Origin: an uncultured Candidatus Saccharibacteria bacterium | GTDB lineage: Bacteria; Patescibacteriota; Minisyncoccia; Minisyncoccales; CAYVNG01 | NCBI GenBank assembly: GCA_964452875.1 | Contig: CAYVNG010000001.1 | Location: 2,786 to 66,785 of the forward strand | Direction of reading: 5' to 3' | DNA: 64,000 bases | Position numbers and translations under genes: made by a program | In this document: in pieces, positions 3,980 through 60,561 of the stretch | How the letters are laid out: each line of letters opens with the position of its first letter | Numbering within the stretch: the stretch's first letter is position 1 | Notes under the pieces: model-generated | What the model was told of the DNA's origin: nothing | Seen by the model: only the letters and a program-made list of their open reading frames with translations | Databases searched by the model: none

Positions 3980-5011
3980 TTACAGGAAAAGCTGCTTATC
4001 TTGATATTTCATCCCCATATGCTGGTAGGCCAGCCTTGTCGCCATCCTTCCTTTCGGAGTCCTTTCAATAAGGCCGAGTTGCAAGAGATATGGCTCGTAA
4101 ATATCCAGGATGGTCCCTTCTTCTTCCGCAGTCGCCGCTACCAGGGTCTTAATCCCCACTGGGCCCCCTTCGAACTTTTTAATGATGGTAGACAGGACTT
4201 TTCTGTCCCCGTTTTCCAGACCGAGAACGTCGATTTCCAAGAAATTCAATGCTTCTTCGGCCGCTTCGGCAGTTATTGTCTTTTTTCCTTCAACCTGCGA
4301 AAAATCCCTCACCCTTTTCAAAAGTCGGTTGGCGATCCTCGGGGTGAATCTGGATCTTGAAGCTATAATCTCCACGGCTTCGGACTCTATCTCCACTCCC
4401 AGTATGACAGCCGATCTTTTGATTATTTTTTCCAAATCCTCTTTTTCGTAGAAATTAAGATGAAAAGTCGCACCGAACCTGTTTCTTAGGGGGGAGGAGA
4501 TCAAAGATATTCTGGTGGTGGCCCCAACTAAGGTAAAGTGAGGGATTTTGAGCTCCATTGTCCTTGCCATTGGCCCTTTTCCTATTATCAGATTCAACTT
4601 GAAGTCTTCCATCACCGGATAGATTATTTCCTCGCAGAGTTTGTTCATCCTGTGAAGCTCGTCTATGAATAGGATGTCTCCTTCCGACAGATTGGTCAGG
4701 ATGGCTGCCAGATCTCCCGCCTTTTCTATGGCCGGTCCTGAAGTCACCTTCATATTCGCTCCCGACTCTTTAGCCACCAGGTAAGCCAAGGTTGTTTTGC
4801 CGAGCCCCGCGTTCCCGTAAAAAAGAAGATGCTCTGGGACCTCTTTCCTCTGTTTAGCGGCTTCGATTATGACACTCAGATTCTTCTTAACCTTTTCCTG
4901 TCCCACGTATTCCTGCCACGACTGAGGTCGCAAGGCCGAATCCAAATTTTCCTCTTCAAGGGAAAGAGGTCCTTCGGGGTCGCTGTTTGTCTGGAATCTT
5001 GACAAAGACAT
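3980..5011 (-). CDS. ruvB: Holliday junction branch-migration helicase RuvB
   Basis: Walker A GNAGLGKTTLA, Walker B DILFIDELHR, sensor motifs; full-length AAA+ RuvB. Confidence 0.95.
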   Translation of the reverse strand: MSLSRFQTNSDPEGPLSLEEENLDSALRPQSWQEYVGQEKVKKNLSVIIEAAKQRKEVPEHLLFYGNAGLGKTTLAYLVAKESGANMKVTSGPAIEKAGDLAAILTNLSEGDILFIDELHRMNKLCEEIIYPVMEDFKLNLIIGKGPMARTMELKIPHFTLVGATTRISLISSPLRNRFGATFHLNFYEKEDLEKIIKRSAVILGVEIESEAVEIIASRSRFTPRIANRLLKRVRDFSQVEGKKTITAEAAEEALNFLEIDVLGLENGDRKVLSTIIKKFEGGPVGIKTLVAATAEEEGTILDIYEPYLLQLGLIERTPKGRMATRLAYQHMGMKYQDKQLFL

Positions 5012-5041
5012 AATAGTTTGATATAATAAGTCGTCTGTATT

Positions 5042-5202
5042 GTAAGCGAAATATAGTTGTTCCGGAGCTGGGGGATAGGATTTTTTCTTAGTTTTTGGAT
5101 GGTCTGGGTTTCACCGAGACCTCTCCTCGGAAAAAAGTCCAAACTTTATGTTCCCAAGCTAAAGCATTCCCCCCAGCTCCGGGTCCGTTATATTTCGCTT
5201 AC
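5042..5202. repeat. imperfect 34-nt inverted repeat pair (14-6-13 arrangement) flanking about 92 bp
   Basis: Left arm 5042-5075 gtaagcgaaatatagttgttccggagctggggga. Reverse complement of 5168-5202 is gtaagcgaaatataacggacccggagctgggggga. The right arm covers the last codons and stop of gspE (..VSEI*). The enclosed segment contains the hairpin ccgagacctctcctcgg. Confidence 0.8.
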
Positions 5203-25930: not shown

Positions 25931-25939
25931 GAAAGCAAA

Positions 25940-25966
25940 AATCCGGATTTTCTCCGGATTTATGCC
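25940..25966 (+). terminator. candidate terminator after the Mth938-like gene
   Basis: aatccgga-ttttc-tccggatt hairpin; the downstream T-tract is weak (tatgcc). Confidence 0.35.
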
Positions 25967-26204
25967 GATTGTCTCGTCTCCATTCTTATGAGAATCTTTT
26001 AGACACTGAGGCCTTTATCCCCTAAATATTTGAAAGAACAAAAAAACAGGGGGCCTGCAAGGAGGTTAGCAGGCAAGACTCTCATAAGAATAAAGACGTT
26101 TATCTGAAAGAGCTTAGACATGATATTATACATCATTGATTCATTTTTGTCAACATAAAGATGGCTTTACTGGCCGAAAAAATAAGGATATACTGGAAAA
26201 TAGC

Positions 26205-27242
26205 ATGAAAAAAGTTCTGCTTTTTTTTATATCATTGGTTATCGGCACCCTGCTTTTGTTGGCAGTCGTCCAGAAAACAGGCTGGGAAGAAGTGAAATCC
26301 GTCTTTCTGTCTTTTTCCGGCTGGGACGGGCTTATAATCCTGGGGTTGAGCTTTTTGATGTTGGTGGTCGGGAATTTGAGGTGGCAGGAAGTCCTGAAAG
26401 GGCAGGGGATAAACATACCCTTTCTCCCTTTGTTTAGGATTTACCTTGCCGGATTCTCGGTCATGTTCCTGGCCCCCGTCGTTCTTTTCGGAGGGGAAAC
26501 TTTGAAAGCATATCTCATAAAAAAGAAATATTCATTGAGTTGGGATCAGGGAGTAGCTTCGGTGGTGGTAGACAGGATGATAGAGCTCACTGTTTACGTG
26601 TTTCTTATCCTGATCGGGGTGGTATATTTCGTTTTTTCAACCGGATTCCATTTTTCCGGTTTCAATTTGGCATTAGGATCGGTTTTGGCTCTTTTCATTG
26701 CCGGCATCTTCCTGTTCTATTCTAAATGTTTCAAAAAGCAGAGCATTCTGAAATTTTTCGTCGGCCTTTTCAAACCAGAGGCTGACGACGGCAAGCCTTT
26801 CGAATTGGAAATGGAATTTTTCAAAATACTCAAGCCGACAGGGAGGTTATTCTGGAAAGTGGTCGCCCTTTCCTTCCTGCGCTGCGGAGTGATGCTGGCC
26901 AGGGTATGGGTCTTGCTCTTTTTCCTCGGCAAGACGCTAGGCCTGCTGCCCGCCCTTTCAGTCCTCAGTTTCTCGTATTTCGCCTTGATGGTTCCTGTTC
27001 CGACCGCTCTCGGAGTGCACGAAACTTTCCAGGCTCTCGTTTTTTCAGTCCTGGGGATAGGCTCTTTCATGGCCCCGGCTTTCGCCATGATTATCAGGGC
27101 GGGAGACCTTCTCATGTCTCTGATCGGATTGGTCCTGCTTTTCCATTTCGGATTCAGCCTGGCCAAGGATGTTCTGTTCAAAAAAATAGAGGCTTTCGCC
27201 AACTACAGCAACGGAAAAAACCACAAAAACGGGCAAGTATGA
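26205..27242 (+). CDS. flippase-like / lysylphosphatidylglycerol-synthase-TM-like (UPF0104) integral membrane protein
   Basis: Eight or more TM helices; MKKVLLFFISLVIGTLLLLAVVQKTGWEEV start typical of the TIGR00374 family. Start placed at the internal ATG 26205. Confidence 0.55.
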   Translation: MKKVLLFFISLVIGTLLLLAVVQKTGWEEVKSVFLSFSGWDGLIILGLSFLMLVVGNLRWQEVLKGQGINIPFLPLFRIYLAGFSVMFLAPVVLFGGETLKAYLIKKKYSLSWDQGVASVVVDRMIELTVYVFLILIGVVYFVFSTGFHFSGFNLALGSVLALFIAGIFLFYSKCFKKQSILKFFVGLFKPEADDGKPFELEMEFFKILKPTGRLFWKVVALSFLRCGVMLARVWVLLFFLGKTLGLLPALSVLSFSYFALMVPVPTALGVHETFQALVFSVLGIGSFMAPAFAMIIRAGDLLMSLIGLVLLFHFGFSLAKDVLFKKIEAFANYSNGKNHKNGQV

Positions 27243-27643
27243 TTTTCTATATCAATACAAAAGGGTTCAATGATGTTGTTGACATCACTGAGAAGGTTTC
27301 CGAGCTGGCGGCCCAGTCAGGTGTGGAAGACGGGATTTGCCTGGTTTCCTGTTCAGGATCCACTGCTGGCGTCACTACGATTGAATATGAAGAGGGGGCA
27401 ATTAAGGATTTAAAAAGGGCGCTTGAAATATTGGCCCCGATGAACGGCATCTATGAACACCAAAAGAAGTGGGGGGACGGAAACGGATACGCCCACGTGA
27501 GGTCAGCTTTGATGAAACCCTGCATATCTTTCCCTATGGAAAAAGGAAGGATAAAGCTCGGCACCTGGCAGCAGATAGTCCTCATCGATTTTGACAACCG
27601 GCCAAGGGAAAGGGAGTTGTCGGTCAAAGTCGTTTCTTCTTGA
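27239..27643 (+). CDS. YjbQ (UPF0047) family protein
   Basis: MIFYINTKGFNDVVDIT...HVRSALMKPCISFPMEKGRIKLGTWQQIVLIDFDNRPRERE, classic YjbQ. ATG overlaps the upstream stop (ATGA). Confidence 0.75.
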   Translation: MIFYINTKGFNDVVDITEKVSELAAQSGVEDGICLVSCSGSTAGVTTIEYEEGAIKDLKRALEILAPMNGIYEHQKKWGDGNGYAHVRSALMKPCISFPMEKGRIKLGTWQQIVLIDFDNRPRERELSVKVVSS

Positions 27644-27659
27644 AGGAATCGTATAAAAA

Positions 27660-27912
27660 AGTTGAGCCCGGATTCGTATCACTTTCTCATGGAGGGTAAC
27701 GCGCGTGCGTTGTTTCTCCGGTGAGCGATGTGTACGAATCCGGGCTTGAATGGTCCGACGGTCCAATTATTTCACGAGAGTTAAAGTACACGCCCTCTAG
27801 GGAGGACGAGTACTACGCCTTATTATTCTGTACAAGGCGTTCCTCCTTTCTGAAGAAGACGGCGTGGCTGGATACGTCCGCTTTATCAACCGACTCCAGC
27901 CGTCCCTTCTCT
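27660..27912 (+). ncRNA. candidate structured RNA or cis-regulatory element of unknown family (strand uncertain)
   Basis: 426-nt non-coding gap in an otherwise compact region, with locally higher GC. agcccggattcgta (27665-27678) pairs perfectly with tacgaatccgggct (27733-27746), enclosing the nested helices ggagg/tctcc and aacgc-gcgt-gcgtt with the palindrome acgcgcgt. Further helices ggagga.../...ttcctcc and gacggcgtggctgg.../ccagccgtc follow, then ccttctcttt. Confidence 0.3.
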
Positions 27913-28069
27913 TTGGATTCTATCGCATAAAGTCCAAAGAGAAGAGGTAAATTGTTTTACGCCTATATTATACATCTTTTGCAATAATTGTCAAGGGATT
28001 GGATATTGCTTGCTAAAGAAAGATTCAGGCTTTAAAATATAAGGAGAAAAGGAAAATAAAACAAAAATC

Positions 28070-28753
28070 ATGTTAGGAATAAAAATAAACAGAGTGGTGA
28101 AGTTCCTGGTTCTGAGCGATCTGGCTTTTTGGGGAGGATGGGGATTGCTGACTCCGGTATTCGCCATTTTCATCGTTGACAGGATCGAAGGGGGATCCGC
28201 CCTGGTCGTCGGCATTGCGGCAGCAGTTTATTGGATCTTCAGGTCTTTTTTCAGGATACCCATAGGCATCATACTGGATACTTGCCCTGGAGAGAAGGAC
28301 GACTATTGGTTTTTGACTGTCGGCTTGGCGATCGCTTCCCTGGTTTCCTTCGGATTCATTTTCGTCACTACTCCGATACAGATATACCTCTTGCAGACGA
28401 TTTACGGGATTTCCATGGCAATGTCGCTTTCCGGCTGGTCTGCCATATTCACCAGGCATATCGGTAAAGGGCAGGAAGCCACCGCCTGGGGGATAGATGC
28501 CACTTTGGTGGGGATGGGGACCGGCATCTCCGGAGCGCTGGGAGGATGGGCGGTGACTCAGTTCGGGTTCGACGCCGTTTTCGTCGCGGTGGGATTGACC
28601 GGCATAATAGGAACGCTGCTGCTTTTAGGGATAAGGAATGACATAAAAGGGGTGTTTGACCGCGGATTTCCGGCCAGCGTGAGGGAAATTTTTCGAAGCG
28701 ATGAAAAACAGGGAAATAGCGAATCTACTTTACGAGATAGCCGATTTTCTTGA
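28070..28753 (+). CDS. six-TM membrane protein, possibly a half-size MFS-like transporter
   Basis: Six predicted TM helices, with a DRxGG-like motif after TM2 (FIVDRIEGG). A sigma70-like TTGCTA-17-TAAAAT lies at 28010-28038. Confidence 0.4.
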   Translation: MLGIKINRVVKFLVLSDLAFWGGWGLLTPVFAIFIVDRIEGGSALVVGIAAAVYWIFRSFFRIPIGIILDTCPGEKDDYWFLTVGLAIASLVSFGFIFVTTPIQIYLLQTIYGISMAMSLSGWSAIFTRHIGKGQEATAWGIDATLVGMGTGISGALGGWAVTQFGFDAVFVAVGLTGIIGTLLLLGIRNDIKGVFDRGFPASVREIFRSDEKQGNSESTLRDSRFS

Positions 28754-32210: not shown

Positions 32211-32221
32211 ATCCTTTAAAA

Positions 32222-32565
32222 GTGGAGGTGGAGGGATTGAACCCTCGTCCAGAAAGTTTAATGAATTCTCTCTACAGGTTTAGCCGGTTTTTTCTTTTCG
32301 GAGCGCCGGATATGAAACTGGCAAAATTCCGATGCTCCCAGTCCCAGAAGTTCAACAGCCGTTCGGGACGGGTCGGCTGTCTATCCCGAAGATTTGACAC
32401 CCGGCTTCCGCTCATCGGGAGTCGGCGGAGCGGATGGCTTTAAGCGTAAGCTAAAGCGGGTTGTTTGAATAAGTTGGCACTTATTGCTTTCTAGAAGTTT
32501 TGTCAGATTCTAGAATACTGAACCTGCCGAACTCTATAAACGTTCCTGTCGAATCTTTCACCCCC
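32222..32565 (-). ncRNA. ssrA: tmRNA (ssrA), tag peptide ANLFKQPALAYA
   Basis: Minus-strand 5' end GGGGGUGAAAGAUUCGACAGGAACG matches the E. coli 5' end GGGGCUGAUUCUGGAUUCGACGGG. Minus-strand 3' end GGACGAGGGUUCAAUCCCUCCACCUCCAC matches GGACGCGGGUUCAACUCCCGCCAGCUCCACCA (T-arm and acceptor). Acceptor GGGGGUG/CACCUCC has the G3.U pair and an A discriminator; CCA is not encoded. Tag region AAUAAGU GCC AAC UUA UUC AAA CAA CCC GCU UUA GCU UAC GCU UAA sits at 32440-32478. Length 344 nt. Confidence 0.8.
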
Positions 32566-60031: not shown

Positions 60032-60066
60032 AAAAAAGCCCCGAACAGGAGAATCCTGCAAGGGGC
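60032..60066 (-). terminator. rho-independent terminator of the 60079-60330 gene
   Basis: Minus-strand gcccc-ttgcaggattctcctgttc-ggggc followed by tttttt. Confidence 0.55.
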
Positions 60067-60078
60067 TGAAGCACGCGG

Positions 60079-60330
60079 TCACCAGTCTTTTTCGGTGACT
60101 ATGATCCATATCCACCAGATGGTGGCTGCCAAGCAGATGGCGCCGAGGACATCATGGCCGAAGGTGAAACACGAAATCGTAGCGTAAACGAGCGCTATGA
60201 TACCTGTCACCCTCGCCCACTTCATATACCTTTGACCTCTTTTCCATTCCTCCCTCATCATCCTTGTCCTTCGAAGCAATCTTTCGCACCGAAACTTCAA
60301 CTCTGTCGACTCTTCATCTTTTTGCTTCAT
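60079..60330 (-). CDS. small two-TM membrane protein (83 aa)
   Basis: Charged N-terminus followed by two hydrophobic helices (VTGIIALVYATISCF, AICLAATIWWIWIIV). Confidence 0.35.
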   Translation of the reverse strand: MKQKDEESTELKFRCERLLRRTRMMREEWKRGQRYMKWARVTGIIALVYATISCFTFGHDVLGAICLAATIWWIWIIVTEKDW

Positions 60331-60420
60331 GTTCCTCCTTCATATCCAGAATTGTTCGGGATCTTTAAAATTATAATATATTTATTGAGATTGTCAAGGC
60401 AATGAGCAATCAACAAATAA

Positions 60421-60461: not shown

Positions 60462-60545
60462 GTGCCGCGGGAGGGACTCGAACCCTCACAGGATTGCTCC
60501 TATACGATTTTGAGTCGTACGCGTAAACCAGTTCCGCCACCGCGG
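60462..60545 (-). tRNA. tRNA-Leu (anticodon CAA), class II
   Basis: Minus-strand GCCGCGG-TG-GCG-GAACTGGTTTA-CGC-G-TACGA-CTCAAAA-TCGTA-TAGGAGCAATCCTG-TGAGGGTTCGAGTCCCTC-CCGCGGC-A. 7-bp acceptor stem, 3-bp D stem, anticodon loop CU-CAA-AA, long variable arm, canonical T arm. CCA not encoded. Confidence 0.85.
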
Positions 60546-60561
60546 CATGCTTCTACAAGCA

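Follow-up and report, generated by a model that had tools for sequence, protein, structure and literature searches.

The 64,000-nucleotide (nt) stretch of bacterial DNA analysed here (the window) contains a 426-nt gap, 27644-28069, between yjbQ (27239-27643, plus strand) and the gene for an MFS half-transporter (28070-28753, plus strand). This gap quite probably contains an independent small RNA (sRNA) gene, called RNA1 below, on the minus strand. It is also likely that RNA1 is a lineage-restricted structured sRNA gene with its own promoter, a terminator-like end and the Shine-Dalgarno (SD)-like element AAAGGAGG in a conserved 5' domain, and any specific mode of action is at best tentative. 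Sequence analysis speaks for the structure and strand of RNA1, for its promoter and terminator signals, for purifying selection acting on the 5' domain and for the lack of a known family. The putative RNA1 gene would be convergent with yjbQ and divergent from the MFS gene. An earlier reading of this DNA (the original prediction) had recognized a structured RNA at 27660-27912. Its helices are real, but the strand, which is minus, and the 12/12 promoter were overlooked, and its limits cut an element whose unit spans ~27655-27994. The features of the element, and the neighbouring promoter-like site, are as follows.

27994-27967, minus strand: sigma-70 promoter of RNA1 (-35 TTGACA at 27994-27989, 16-nt spacer, -10 TATAAT at 27972-27967; 12/12 match)
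27655-27962, minus strand: predicted RNA1 primary transcript, ~308 nt, with ends placed from the promoter and the terminator-like hairpin
27904-27946, minus strand: 5' hairpin H1, ~19 bp (14 + 4-5), with a C/A mismatch and U·G pairs
27857-27903, minus strand: variable internal domain GGGACGGCUGGAG ... AUAAAG ... CACGCCGUC, with junction motifs CGGCUG, AUAAAG and CACGCCG
27841-27859, minus strand: hairpin in which CU-rich UCUUCUU pairs with the perfect SD-like AGGAGGA (27847-27841); found in the minimum free energy (MFE) fold of both lineages
27815-27840, minus strand: hairpin H3, ACGCCUUGU / AUAAGGCGU, with two compensatory pairs relative to the sister-lineage contig L084 and a conserved G·U pair
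27797-27835, minus strand: candidate 12-codon mini-ORF (open reading frame), UUG start 6-8 nt past GGAGG
27785-27814, minus strand: hairpin AGUAC-CGUCCUC-CCUA-GAGGGCG-GUACU, then UUUAA; terminator-like, 7 pairs
27747-27784, minus strand: remnant of a variable 3' domain (contigs L084 and L091 carry ~95 nt more)
27655-27746, minus strand: long terminator-like hairpin (27746-27665), with a 14-bp helix as its base, then CAAC-UUUUUU (U-run 27660-27655)
28010-28038, plus strand: divergent promoter-like site TTGCTA-17-TAAAAT for the MFS gene, 9/12 match, conserved in L084

Promoter, strand and fold of RNA1

Four perfect sigma-70 promoter sites are found in the 64 kb of the window versus 0.01 expected, a 400-fold enrichment, and the three others each precede a compact transcription unit (two RNA candidates and one small protein gene, described below). 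The -35 and -10 hexamers of the RNA1 promoter are unchanged in the sister lineage (contigs L084-L088), and transcription would start at ~27962 +/- 2.

The RNA is assigned to the minus strand because of this promoter, a one-sided U-run, stronger folding of that strand and the G·U pairs of the helices. The U-run follows the terminal hairpin on the minus strand only, and does so in every variant: CAAC-UUUUUU in the window and CUUUCUUUU or CCUUUUUUU in relatives. Folded as a minus-strand RNA (27962->27650), the whole unit has an MFE of -129 kcal/mol versus -81.4 +/- 4.8 kcal/mol for shuffled sequences (z = -9.96), and the sister-lineage form (L084) folds at z = -6.9. Over 27644-27930, the z value is -7.09 for the minus strand versus -4.28 for the plus strand; structured folding, as originally proposed, is thus far better than that of shuffles on both strands. 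Conserved U·G/G·U pairs also occur in the helices (H1 has three, H3 and the terminator hairpin one each), and strain variants swap C-G for U·G (GGAUC/GGUCC in L087, CUUCUGC/GCAGGAG in L091). On the plus strand such pairs would turn into A·C mismatches, and they therefore fit only a minus-strand RNA.

These data bear directly on the proposal, also made in the original prediction, that the region is a plus-strand riboswitch or leader controlling the downstream MFS transporter gene. The structure does lie upstream of that gene, and its plus strand does beat shuffled sequences (z = -4.3), as the reverse complement of any structured RNA will. However, this z value is far weaker than that of the minus strand, and the G·U pairs of the conserved helices are lost as mismatches. 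The TTGCTA-17-TAAAAT site, which is present as first reported, lies downstream of the whole structure, so that the structure falls outside the 5' untranslated region (UTR) of the MFS gene; this site is 15 bp from the -35 of RNA1 and is a neighbour of RNA1 rather than a part of it. Relatives have the MFS gene without the element, usually abutting or overlapping the upstream gene, and no Rfam riboswitch family matches. RNA1 therefore shares with transporter riboswitches that it is a structured, conserved non-coding segment beside a transporter gene, but it is on the wrong strand, outside the MFS 5' UTR and absent from orthologous MFS loci. A riboswitch here is highly improbable.

The predicted fold of RNA1 is a chain of local hairpins with no 5'/3' pairing, in the window and in L084. 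H1 sits at +17 to +59 of the predicted transcript. In the internal domain that follows, the junction motifs are kept in the window and in L084, the intervening helices differ, and the pairing register is ambiguous. The SD-sequestering hairpin takes the form CCUUC-GAAA-GGAGG in L084, with AAAGGAGGAA invariant. The CCUCC of the hairpin at 27785-27814 can alternatively pair with the SD GGAGG; the register of this hairpin differs in L084, and hence it is without covariation support. At the base of the terminal hairpin is a perfect 14-bp inverted repeat (27665-27678 / 27733-27746), for which the estimated chance number in 64 kb is ~0.02 and whose 14-mer has no further occurrence in the window. Its inner tiers are CUCA/UGAG, GGAG/CUCC and AACGC/GCGUU. 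The terminator scan does not reach loops as large as that of this hairpin. The helices named in the original prediction are all found, including the 14-bp long-range pair, the two inner stems GGAG/CUCC and AACGC/GCGUU, and the further stems GGAGGA/UCCUCC and GACGGC..GGCUGG/CCAGCC..GCCGUC. Its C/U-rich tract is really one arm of the hairpin at 27904-27946, and its description of the region as GC-richer than the surroundings holds relative to the AT-rich promoter stretch (0.32) but not relative to the flanking coding sequence (0.47-0.53, compared with 0.49-0.53 for the element).

Taken together, RNA1 would be transcribed on the minus strand from a consensus sigma-70 promoter, and its 5' domain would present, in order, H1, the junction motifs, the sequestered SD-like AAAGGAGG, H3 and the CCUCC element. 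A plastic 3' domain of apparently dispensable hairpins would follow, and the long GC-rich hairpin with its U-tract should end transcription before it enters yjbQ in the antisense direction.

Comparison with the sister lineage

Homologues of the MFS and YjbQ proteins were taken from a collection of 5.8 billion proteins. Apart from the window's own cluster they include a single sister lineage, at 86-87% identity; all others are at <=73%. In the sister-lineage contigs (L084-L090) the equivalent site is a 497-nt gap, with a homologous element on the matching strand; this form of RNA1 is ~382-386 nt long versus ~308 nt in the window. Motifs kept between the lineages are GGGA(A)CGGCUG, AUAAAG, CACGCCG, GAAAGGAGGAA and CCUCCCUAG. 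Beyond these motifs, the promoter and H1, the rest of the element has diverged, with large indels. The 4-fold degenerate sites of six flanking genes are 47% identical between the lineages (265/559), and the conserved blocks of RNA1 are therefore under selection.

The helices differ in how they are conserved. The H1 stem is near-invariant between lineages, with a different apical loop (UGCGA vs CAAGU); 16 of its 18 pairs in the curated alignment never vary, and the other 2 change on one side only (C-G <-> U·G). H3 shows two double changes relative to L084, G-C->A-U and U-A->C-G. The terminal hairpin adopts the same long fold in three sequence versions (window/L091, L084 and L086), with compensatory changes at four base pairs (helix 3). 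For the 46 curated pairs taken from H1, H3 and the terminator hairpin, pairing holds in 96.5% of cells. Both sides have changed in 6 of these pairs, a number equalled by 3/500 shuffles. When the structures are slid by 1-3 columns, 30-51% of cells are paired and 0-1 pairs are double-sided. The idea, put forward with the original prediction, that related loci might reveal covariation is thus borne out by compensatory changes at six stem pairs in the sister lineage.

The 3' domain behaves differently from the conserved 5' domain. Contig L091, whose YjbQ is 98% identical to that of the window, has a long 3' domain as in L084. The ~95 extra nt in L084 and L091 form two to three added hairpins, which in L091 are CUUCUGC/GCAGGAG, GGACCUAGG/CCUAGGUCC and GUUCGgCGG/CCGuCGAAC. 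Because L091 has the long form, the window RNA1 appears to have undergone a recent internal deletion, in which ~95 nt with two hairpins and half of a third were lost. This suggests that the 3' domain is dispensable or under weak constraint; the core consists of the conserved 5' domain and the terminal hairpin. A direct comparison of L091 (1807-2058) with the window (27644-27850) finds near-identical terminator hairpins around a strongly different RNA1 middle (substitutions plus the 95-nt indel), which suggests recombination or mosaicism within the RNA gene.

Several observations weigh against RNA1 as a functional, independently transcribed sRNA. Both ends of the transcript are placed from sequence signals, and in the window and in L091 the U-tract starts 4 nt past the stem, a spacing less than ideal for intrinsic termination. 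The covariation rests on few independent events, from approximately two lineages and a few strain variants, and the middle domain is without an agreed structure. The strain-level deletion of ~95 nt could mean relaxed constraint or partial decay of the RNA. RNA1 could be linked to no target, partner protein or associated gene, and its neighbours are housekeeping genes on the other strand; in RNAduplex runs against 53 translation-start regions, the mean was -42.2 kcal/mol versus -41.6 kcal/mol for shuffled targets, which is no better. Finally, H1 combines invariant half-sites with a variable centre, as an operator would.

This last point is the basis for a model in which the palindromes act as DNA, with H1 serving as an operator for the back-to-back promoters and the 14-bp repeat as a protein site or bidirectional terminator. 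The position of H1 within the transcribed region (+17 to +59) and its conserved asymmetries (the C/A mismatch and the U·G pairs), which are typical of RNA, argue against this model. In addition, the other helices alter their sequence yet stay paired, which a DNA-site model does not predict, and the U-run is confined to one strand. The chance that these palindromes work as DNA sites is very slight.

The locus, its origin and searches for relatives

The local gene order is PHP-domain protein, DUF498, LPG-synthase-like membrane protein, YjbQ, the gap, MFS, PolX, NUDIX and DNA_binding_1 protein, and all genes neighbouring the gap are on the plus strand. The gap 27644-28069 contains no credible ORF, in agreement with the original prediction, and none that is conserved. 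The products of the adjacent genes (LPG synthase, YjbQ, MFS, PolX, NUDIX and DNA_binding_1) include no likely RNA-partner protein (nuclease, recombinase or reverse transcriptase). Metagenome-assembled genomes of Candidatus Nealsonbacteria supply the best-named homologues of the MFS protein beside the gap, and contigs identical to that of the window are present in ENA, JGI and Logan assemblies.

The RNA1 element has been seen only in two species-level lineages of an uncultured Nealsonbacteria-like bacterium that belongs to the Parcubacteria, within the Candidate Phyla Radiation (CPR). Searches with nhmmer of 80 GTDB MFS-orthologue loci, using a single sequence and a 5-sequence profile, matched only these two known lineages; no further RNA1 match was found within +/-10 kb of 10 loci in the closest outgroup or in the window. 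A metagenome scan with an H1 hairpin pattern, which was too strict in hindsight, found only another contig of the L084 lineage. Synteny is kept in the closest outgroup, where only 78 nt separate yjbQ from the MFS gene, and in 67/78 measurable GTDB representatives the upstream gene lies <=155 nt from the MFS gene, often overlapping it. Given this tight junction in relatives, the RNA1 element is evidently an insertion of 350-420 nt and, judged from gene order, apparently a young one. The insertion came together with the divergent promoter-like site for the now separated MFS gene.

An insertion with a plastic 3' domain could also be a decaying remnant of foreign DNA, derived for instance from a mobile element, a prophage or the leader of a gene cassette. 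The RNA would then be a by-product of a segment that mattered solely for its outward or divergent promoters, which might for example drive the MFS-PolX operon after its splitting. The insertion itself, the high variability of the 3' domain with its ~95-nt strain-level deletion, the mosaic pattern between strains and the conservation of the divergent MFS promoter along with the element are all compatible with such an origin. On the other hand, the conservation of H1, the junction motifs, the SD element and H3 far exceeds the neutral level of 47%, and compensatory changes maintain the helices. The window and ~1 Mb of related loci contain no second copy, and there was no sign of terminal repeats. 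Similarity to phages, plasmids and viral contigs is also lacking (blastn against phages and plasmids gave only 38-nt chance matches, and a scan of viral contigs gave 0), as is any protein-domain remnant. A mere remnant is accordingly improbable, and an sRNA gene is the preferred interpretation of the inserted DNA.

No known family accounts for RNA1. Rfam searches of the whole window at gathering thresholds and at E<=1 returned no family for it. At E<=10, searches of 27500-28200 and of the long L084 form returned only chance-level microRNA, small nucleolar RNA and CRISPR-DR matches. Neither the short nor the long form had an E<=10 match to models for 6S RNA, RNase P, signal recognition particle (SRP) RNA, transfer-messenger RNA (tmRNA), riboswitches, HEARO, retron msr or ribozymes. 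The tRNA/tmRNA scan of the gap was also negative; the tmRNA of the window is at 32220-32565, minus strand. Searches by eye for RNase P P4/CR motifs, the SRP domain IV motif and a CsrA-type excess of GGA found nothing convincing. The view that this is an unclassified, lineage-specific RNA is thus upheld by the Rfam check proposed for the gap and by conservation of structure and promoter in the sister lineage. A 6S-like RNA, also considered in the original prediction, finds no support, as RNA1 lacks a 5'/3' closing helix, a central bubble and a match to the 6S model. RNA1 does resemble 6S RNA (RF00013) in being structured, abundant-looking, fast-evolving and, as predicted, independently transcribed from a consensus promoter, but its length of 310-385 nt (versus ~180 nt) and its missing end-closing helix and bubble set it apart.

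Further candidates were tried and rejected. Six-frame comparison found no frame that is open and conserved across the gap in both lineages, no Pfam domain matched any of the six frames of the gap, and a search of the 5.8 billion proteins with the only open frame found no homologue; a recognisable decayed pseudogene, the alternative raised at the outset, is thereby rejected. A repeated mobile element (miniature inverted-repeat transposable element or insertion sequence remnant) was rejected on the basis of the single copy in the window and ~1 Mb of related loci and the absence of terminal repeats noted above. An omega-RNA, bridge RNA or retron msr was rejected because there is no adjacent partner gene and no Rfam HEARO/msr match. 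RNA1 is also not a paralogue of a second RNA candidate of the window, sRNA2 (see below), since their likeness is confined to the promoter block.

Possible modes of action and further RNA candidates

Most likely, RNA1 is produced and is trans-acting, working through the conserved 5' domain. It could serve as a regulatory RNA or as a protein- or ribosome-binding RNA, and the 5' domain may perhaps also be read as a 12-codon ORF. The closest overall parallels are the sRNAs RNAIII/hld, SgrS/SgrT and SR1/SR1P, which are likewise a few hundred nt in size and have their own strong promoter, a chain of hairpins, a terminal hairpin with a U-tract, purine- and pyrimidine-rich SD/anti-SD-like elements and a short ORF within a structured RNA (only a possible ORF for RNA1). 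Unlike Staphylococcus RNAIII, SgrS/SgrT and SR1/SR1P, with which it has no sequence or structure homology, RNA1 has a candidate ORF of only 12 codons, is found in two lineages only and resides in a CPR bacterium whose genes seem for the most part to have no SD.

The candidate mini-ORF in the window reads UUG UAC AGA AUA AUA AGG CGU AGU ACU CGU CCU CCC UAG, which would specify M-Y-R-I-I-R-R-S-T-R-P-P-stop (MYRIIRRSTRPP). The corresponding peptides are MKKIIRRSLRPP in L084 and MTKIIRRSLRPP in L087/88, with the shared pattern M-x-x-IIRRSxRPP-stop. In both lineages the invariant AAAGGAGG precedes the UUG by 6-8 nt, and the same in-frame UAG ends the frame. The versions differ at 11 nt, of which 7 are third positions and 5 are synonymous; 3 residues are changed, and the last nine residues differ once. 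In simulations of 11 random substitutions, so few residue changes had P = 0.004 and so many third-position changes P = 0.014, statistics that are post hoc and come from three sequence versions. In the 30 nt before the start, an obvious SD is missing from most genes of the window (~50 ORFs with uncurated starts), which makes the perfect SD of RNA1 conspicuous. A clear GGAGG is found at only a few starts, for example those of ORFs 8104 and 16504, a small ORF at 60329 and the RNA1 mini-ORF. CCUCCC, the sequence of the two Pro codons, is able to pair with the SD and overlaps the weak terminator-like hairpin.

One alternative holds that RNA1 is chiefly an mRNA or leader for the 12-codon ORF M-x-x-I-I-R-R-S-x-R-P-P-UAG, and thus a translation-sensing attenuator or dual-function sRNA. 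Ribosomes would load at the rare perfect SD and pause or terminate poorly at Arg-Pro-Pro-stop, in the manner of TnaC-type or Pro-stop arrest. By covering the CCUCC hairpin, a paused ribosome would set the choice between a stop of transcription at the weak hairpin and U-run (27808-27785) and read-through into the 3' domain. TnaC ends in Arg-Pro-stop; Arg-Pro-stop and Pro-Pro-stop slow termination, and Pro-Pro-stop promotes tmRNA tagging. This model draws on the AAAGGAGG, UUG spacing and in-frame stop common to both lineages, the coding-like substitutions (P = 0.004 and P = 0.014), the apparent rarity of SDs upstream of window genes and the slow termination at such peptide ends. It would also explain why the SD can pair with either the CU-rich strand or CCUCC, and why a terminator-like hairpin overlaps the stop codon. 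RNA1 accordingly resembles the TnaC-type and RAPP-type arrest leaders, in that its candidate ORF has a variable N-terminus and a conserved Arg-Pro-Pro-stop C-terminus, with alternative pairings at the SD and stop and a weak terminator-like hairpin past the stop. It differs from them in ending with RPP-stop, not RAPP or W..D..P-stop, and in having no regulated downstream gene.

That last difference counts against an attenuator, because no minus-strand gene follows downstream; the next features are the strong terminator-like hairpin and antisense yjbQ. Predicted stems enclose both the SD and the start codon, two of the 'synonymous' changes also count as compensatory ones in H3, and the hairpin past the stop codon is in another register in L084. 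The start codon is UUG, the statistics carry the limits already given, and no homologous peptide was found among the 5.8 billion proteins. A role chiefly as an mRNA or leader is therefore unlikely, though it deserves to be kept in mind alongside the favoured sRNA gene.

The second RNA candidate, and the two other units behind perfect promoters, are located as follows.

25975-26153, minus strand: sRNA2 candidate, ~125 nt, with perfect promoter TTGACA-17-TATAAT at 26153-26125
5042-5202, plus strand: RNA candidate, a long imperfect hairpin of ~160 nt, with perfect promoter at 4999-5027; z = -8.5
60040-60397, minus strand: fourth perfect promoter (60397-60370) with a small ORF of ~83 aa, ATG at ~60329

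Homologues of sRNA2 are found at L084 2798-2981, L091 96-287, L015 1689-1798, L016 2760-2886 and L026 2781-2899. The candidate is conserved in distant Parcubacteria, and in L016 and L026 it lies directly upstream of, and divergent from, the MFS gene. It consists of a long closing helix UUCUUAUGAGAGUCUU/AAGAUUCUCAUAAGAA around a hairpin with the conserved loop (A)ACCUCCUU, and it further includes a GGGGAUA motif and a CCCC/GGGG helix. The loop is similar to the 16S rRNA anti-SD tail. Of the 39 pairs in the RNAalifold prediction, 17 have changed on both sides, and Rfam gave no match to sRNA2. By these comparisons, sRNA2 is more widely conserved than RNA1, and it is probably of more interest. A terminator-like hairpin (AUCCGGA-GAAAA-UCCGGAU, 25935-25960) lies between the DUF498 gene and sRNA2, and compensatory changes preserve this stem in L084 as AUCAGGC/GCCUGAU.

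A more speculative model combines these elements. RNA1 would be a free-standing sRNA that senses the state of the ribosome, with the SD and 12-codon arrest ORF (..IIRRSxRPP-UAG) switching the GGAGG between pairing with the CU-rich strand and pairing with CCUCC. This switch might control read-through into the 3' domain or the binding of a partner to RNA1. One possible partner is sRNA2, 1.8 kb away and more widely conserved, with its loop ACCUCCUU copying the 16S anti-SD tail. Such a ribosome sensor is quite improbable.

The RNA candidate at 5042-5202 lies in a gap between two minus-strand genes and has the stem GUAAGCGAAAUAUA..CCGGAGCUGGGGG / CCCCCAGCUCCGG..UAUAUUUCGCUUAC. Its shape recalls 6S RNA, yet there is no Rfam 6S match. 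The ~83-aa ORF has a hydrophobic C-terminal half, a strong SD (GAAGGAGGAAC-ATG) and a terminator-like hairpin at ~60075-60040, and its unit lies just downstream of a tRNA gene (60463-60546).

For now, the narrow distribution of RNA1 limits its wider importance, and it can be regarded as an orphan bacterial sRNA of a familiar kind. The annotation of this locus is now corrected for strand, limits and promoter, and a small model is usable for searches of CPR genomes. CPR bacteria (Patescibacteria) have tiny genomes and few regulators, and descriptions of their non-coding RNA genes, other than those for rRNA, tRNA, tmRNA, RNase P RNA and SRP RNA, seem to be scarce; literature searches found no sRNAs of the RNA1 kind described in this group. 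RNA1 and the two further candidates in the window suggest that these reduced episymbionts gain and keep sRNA genes.

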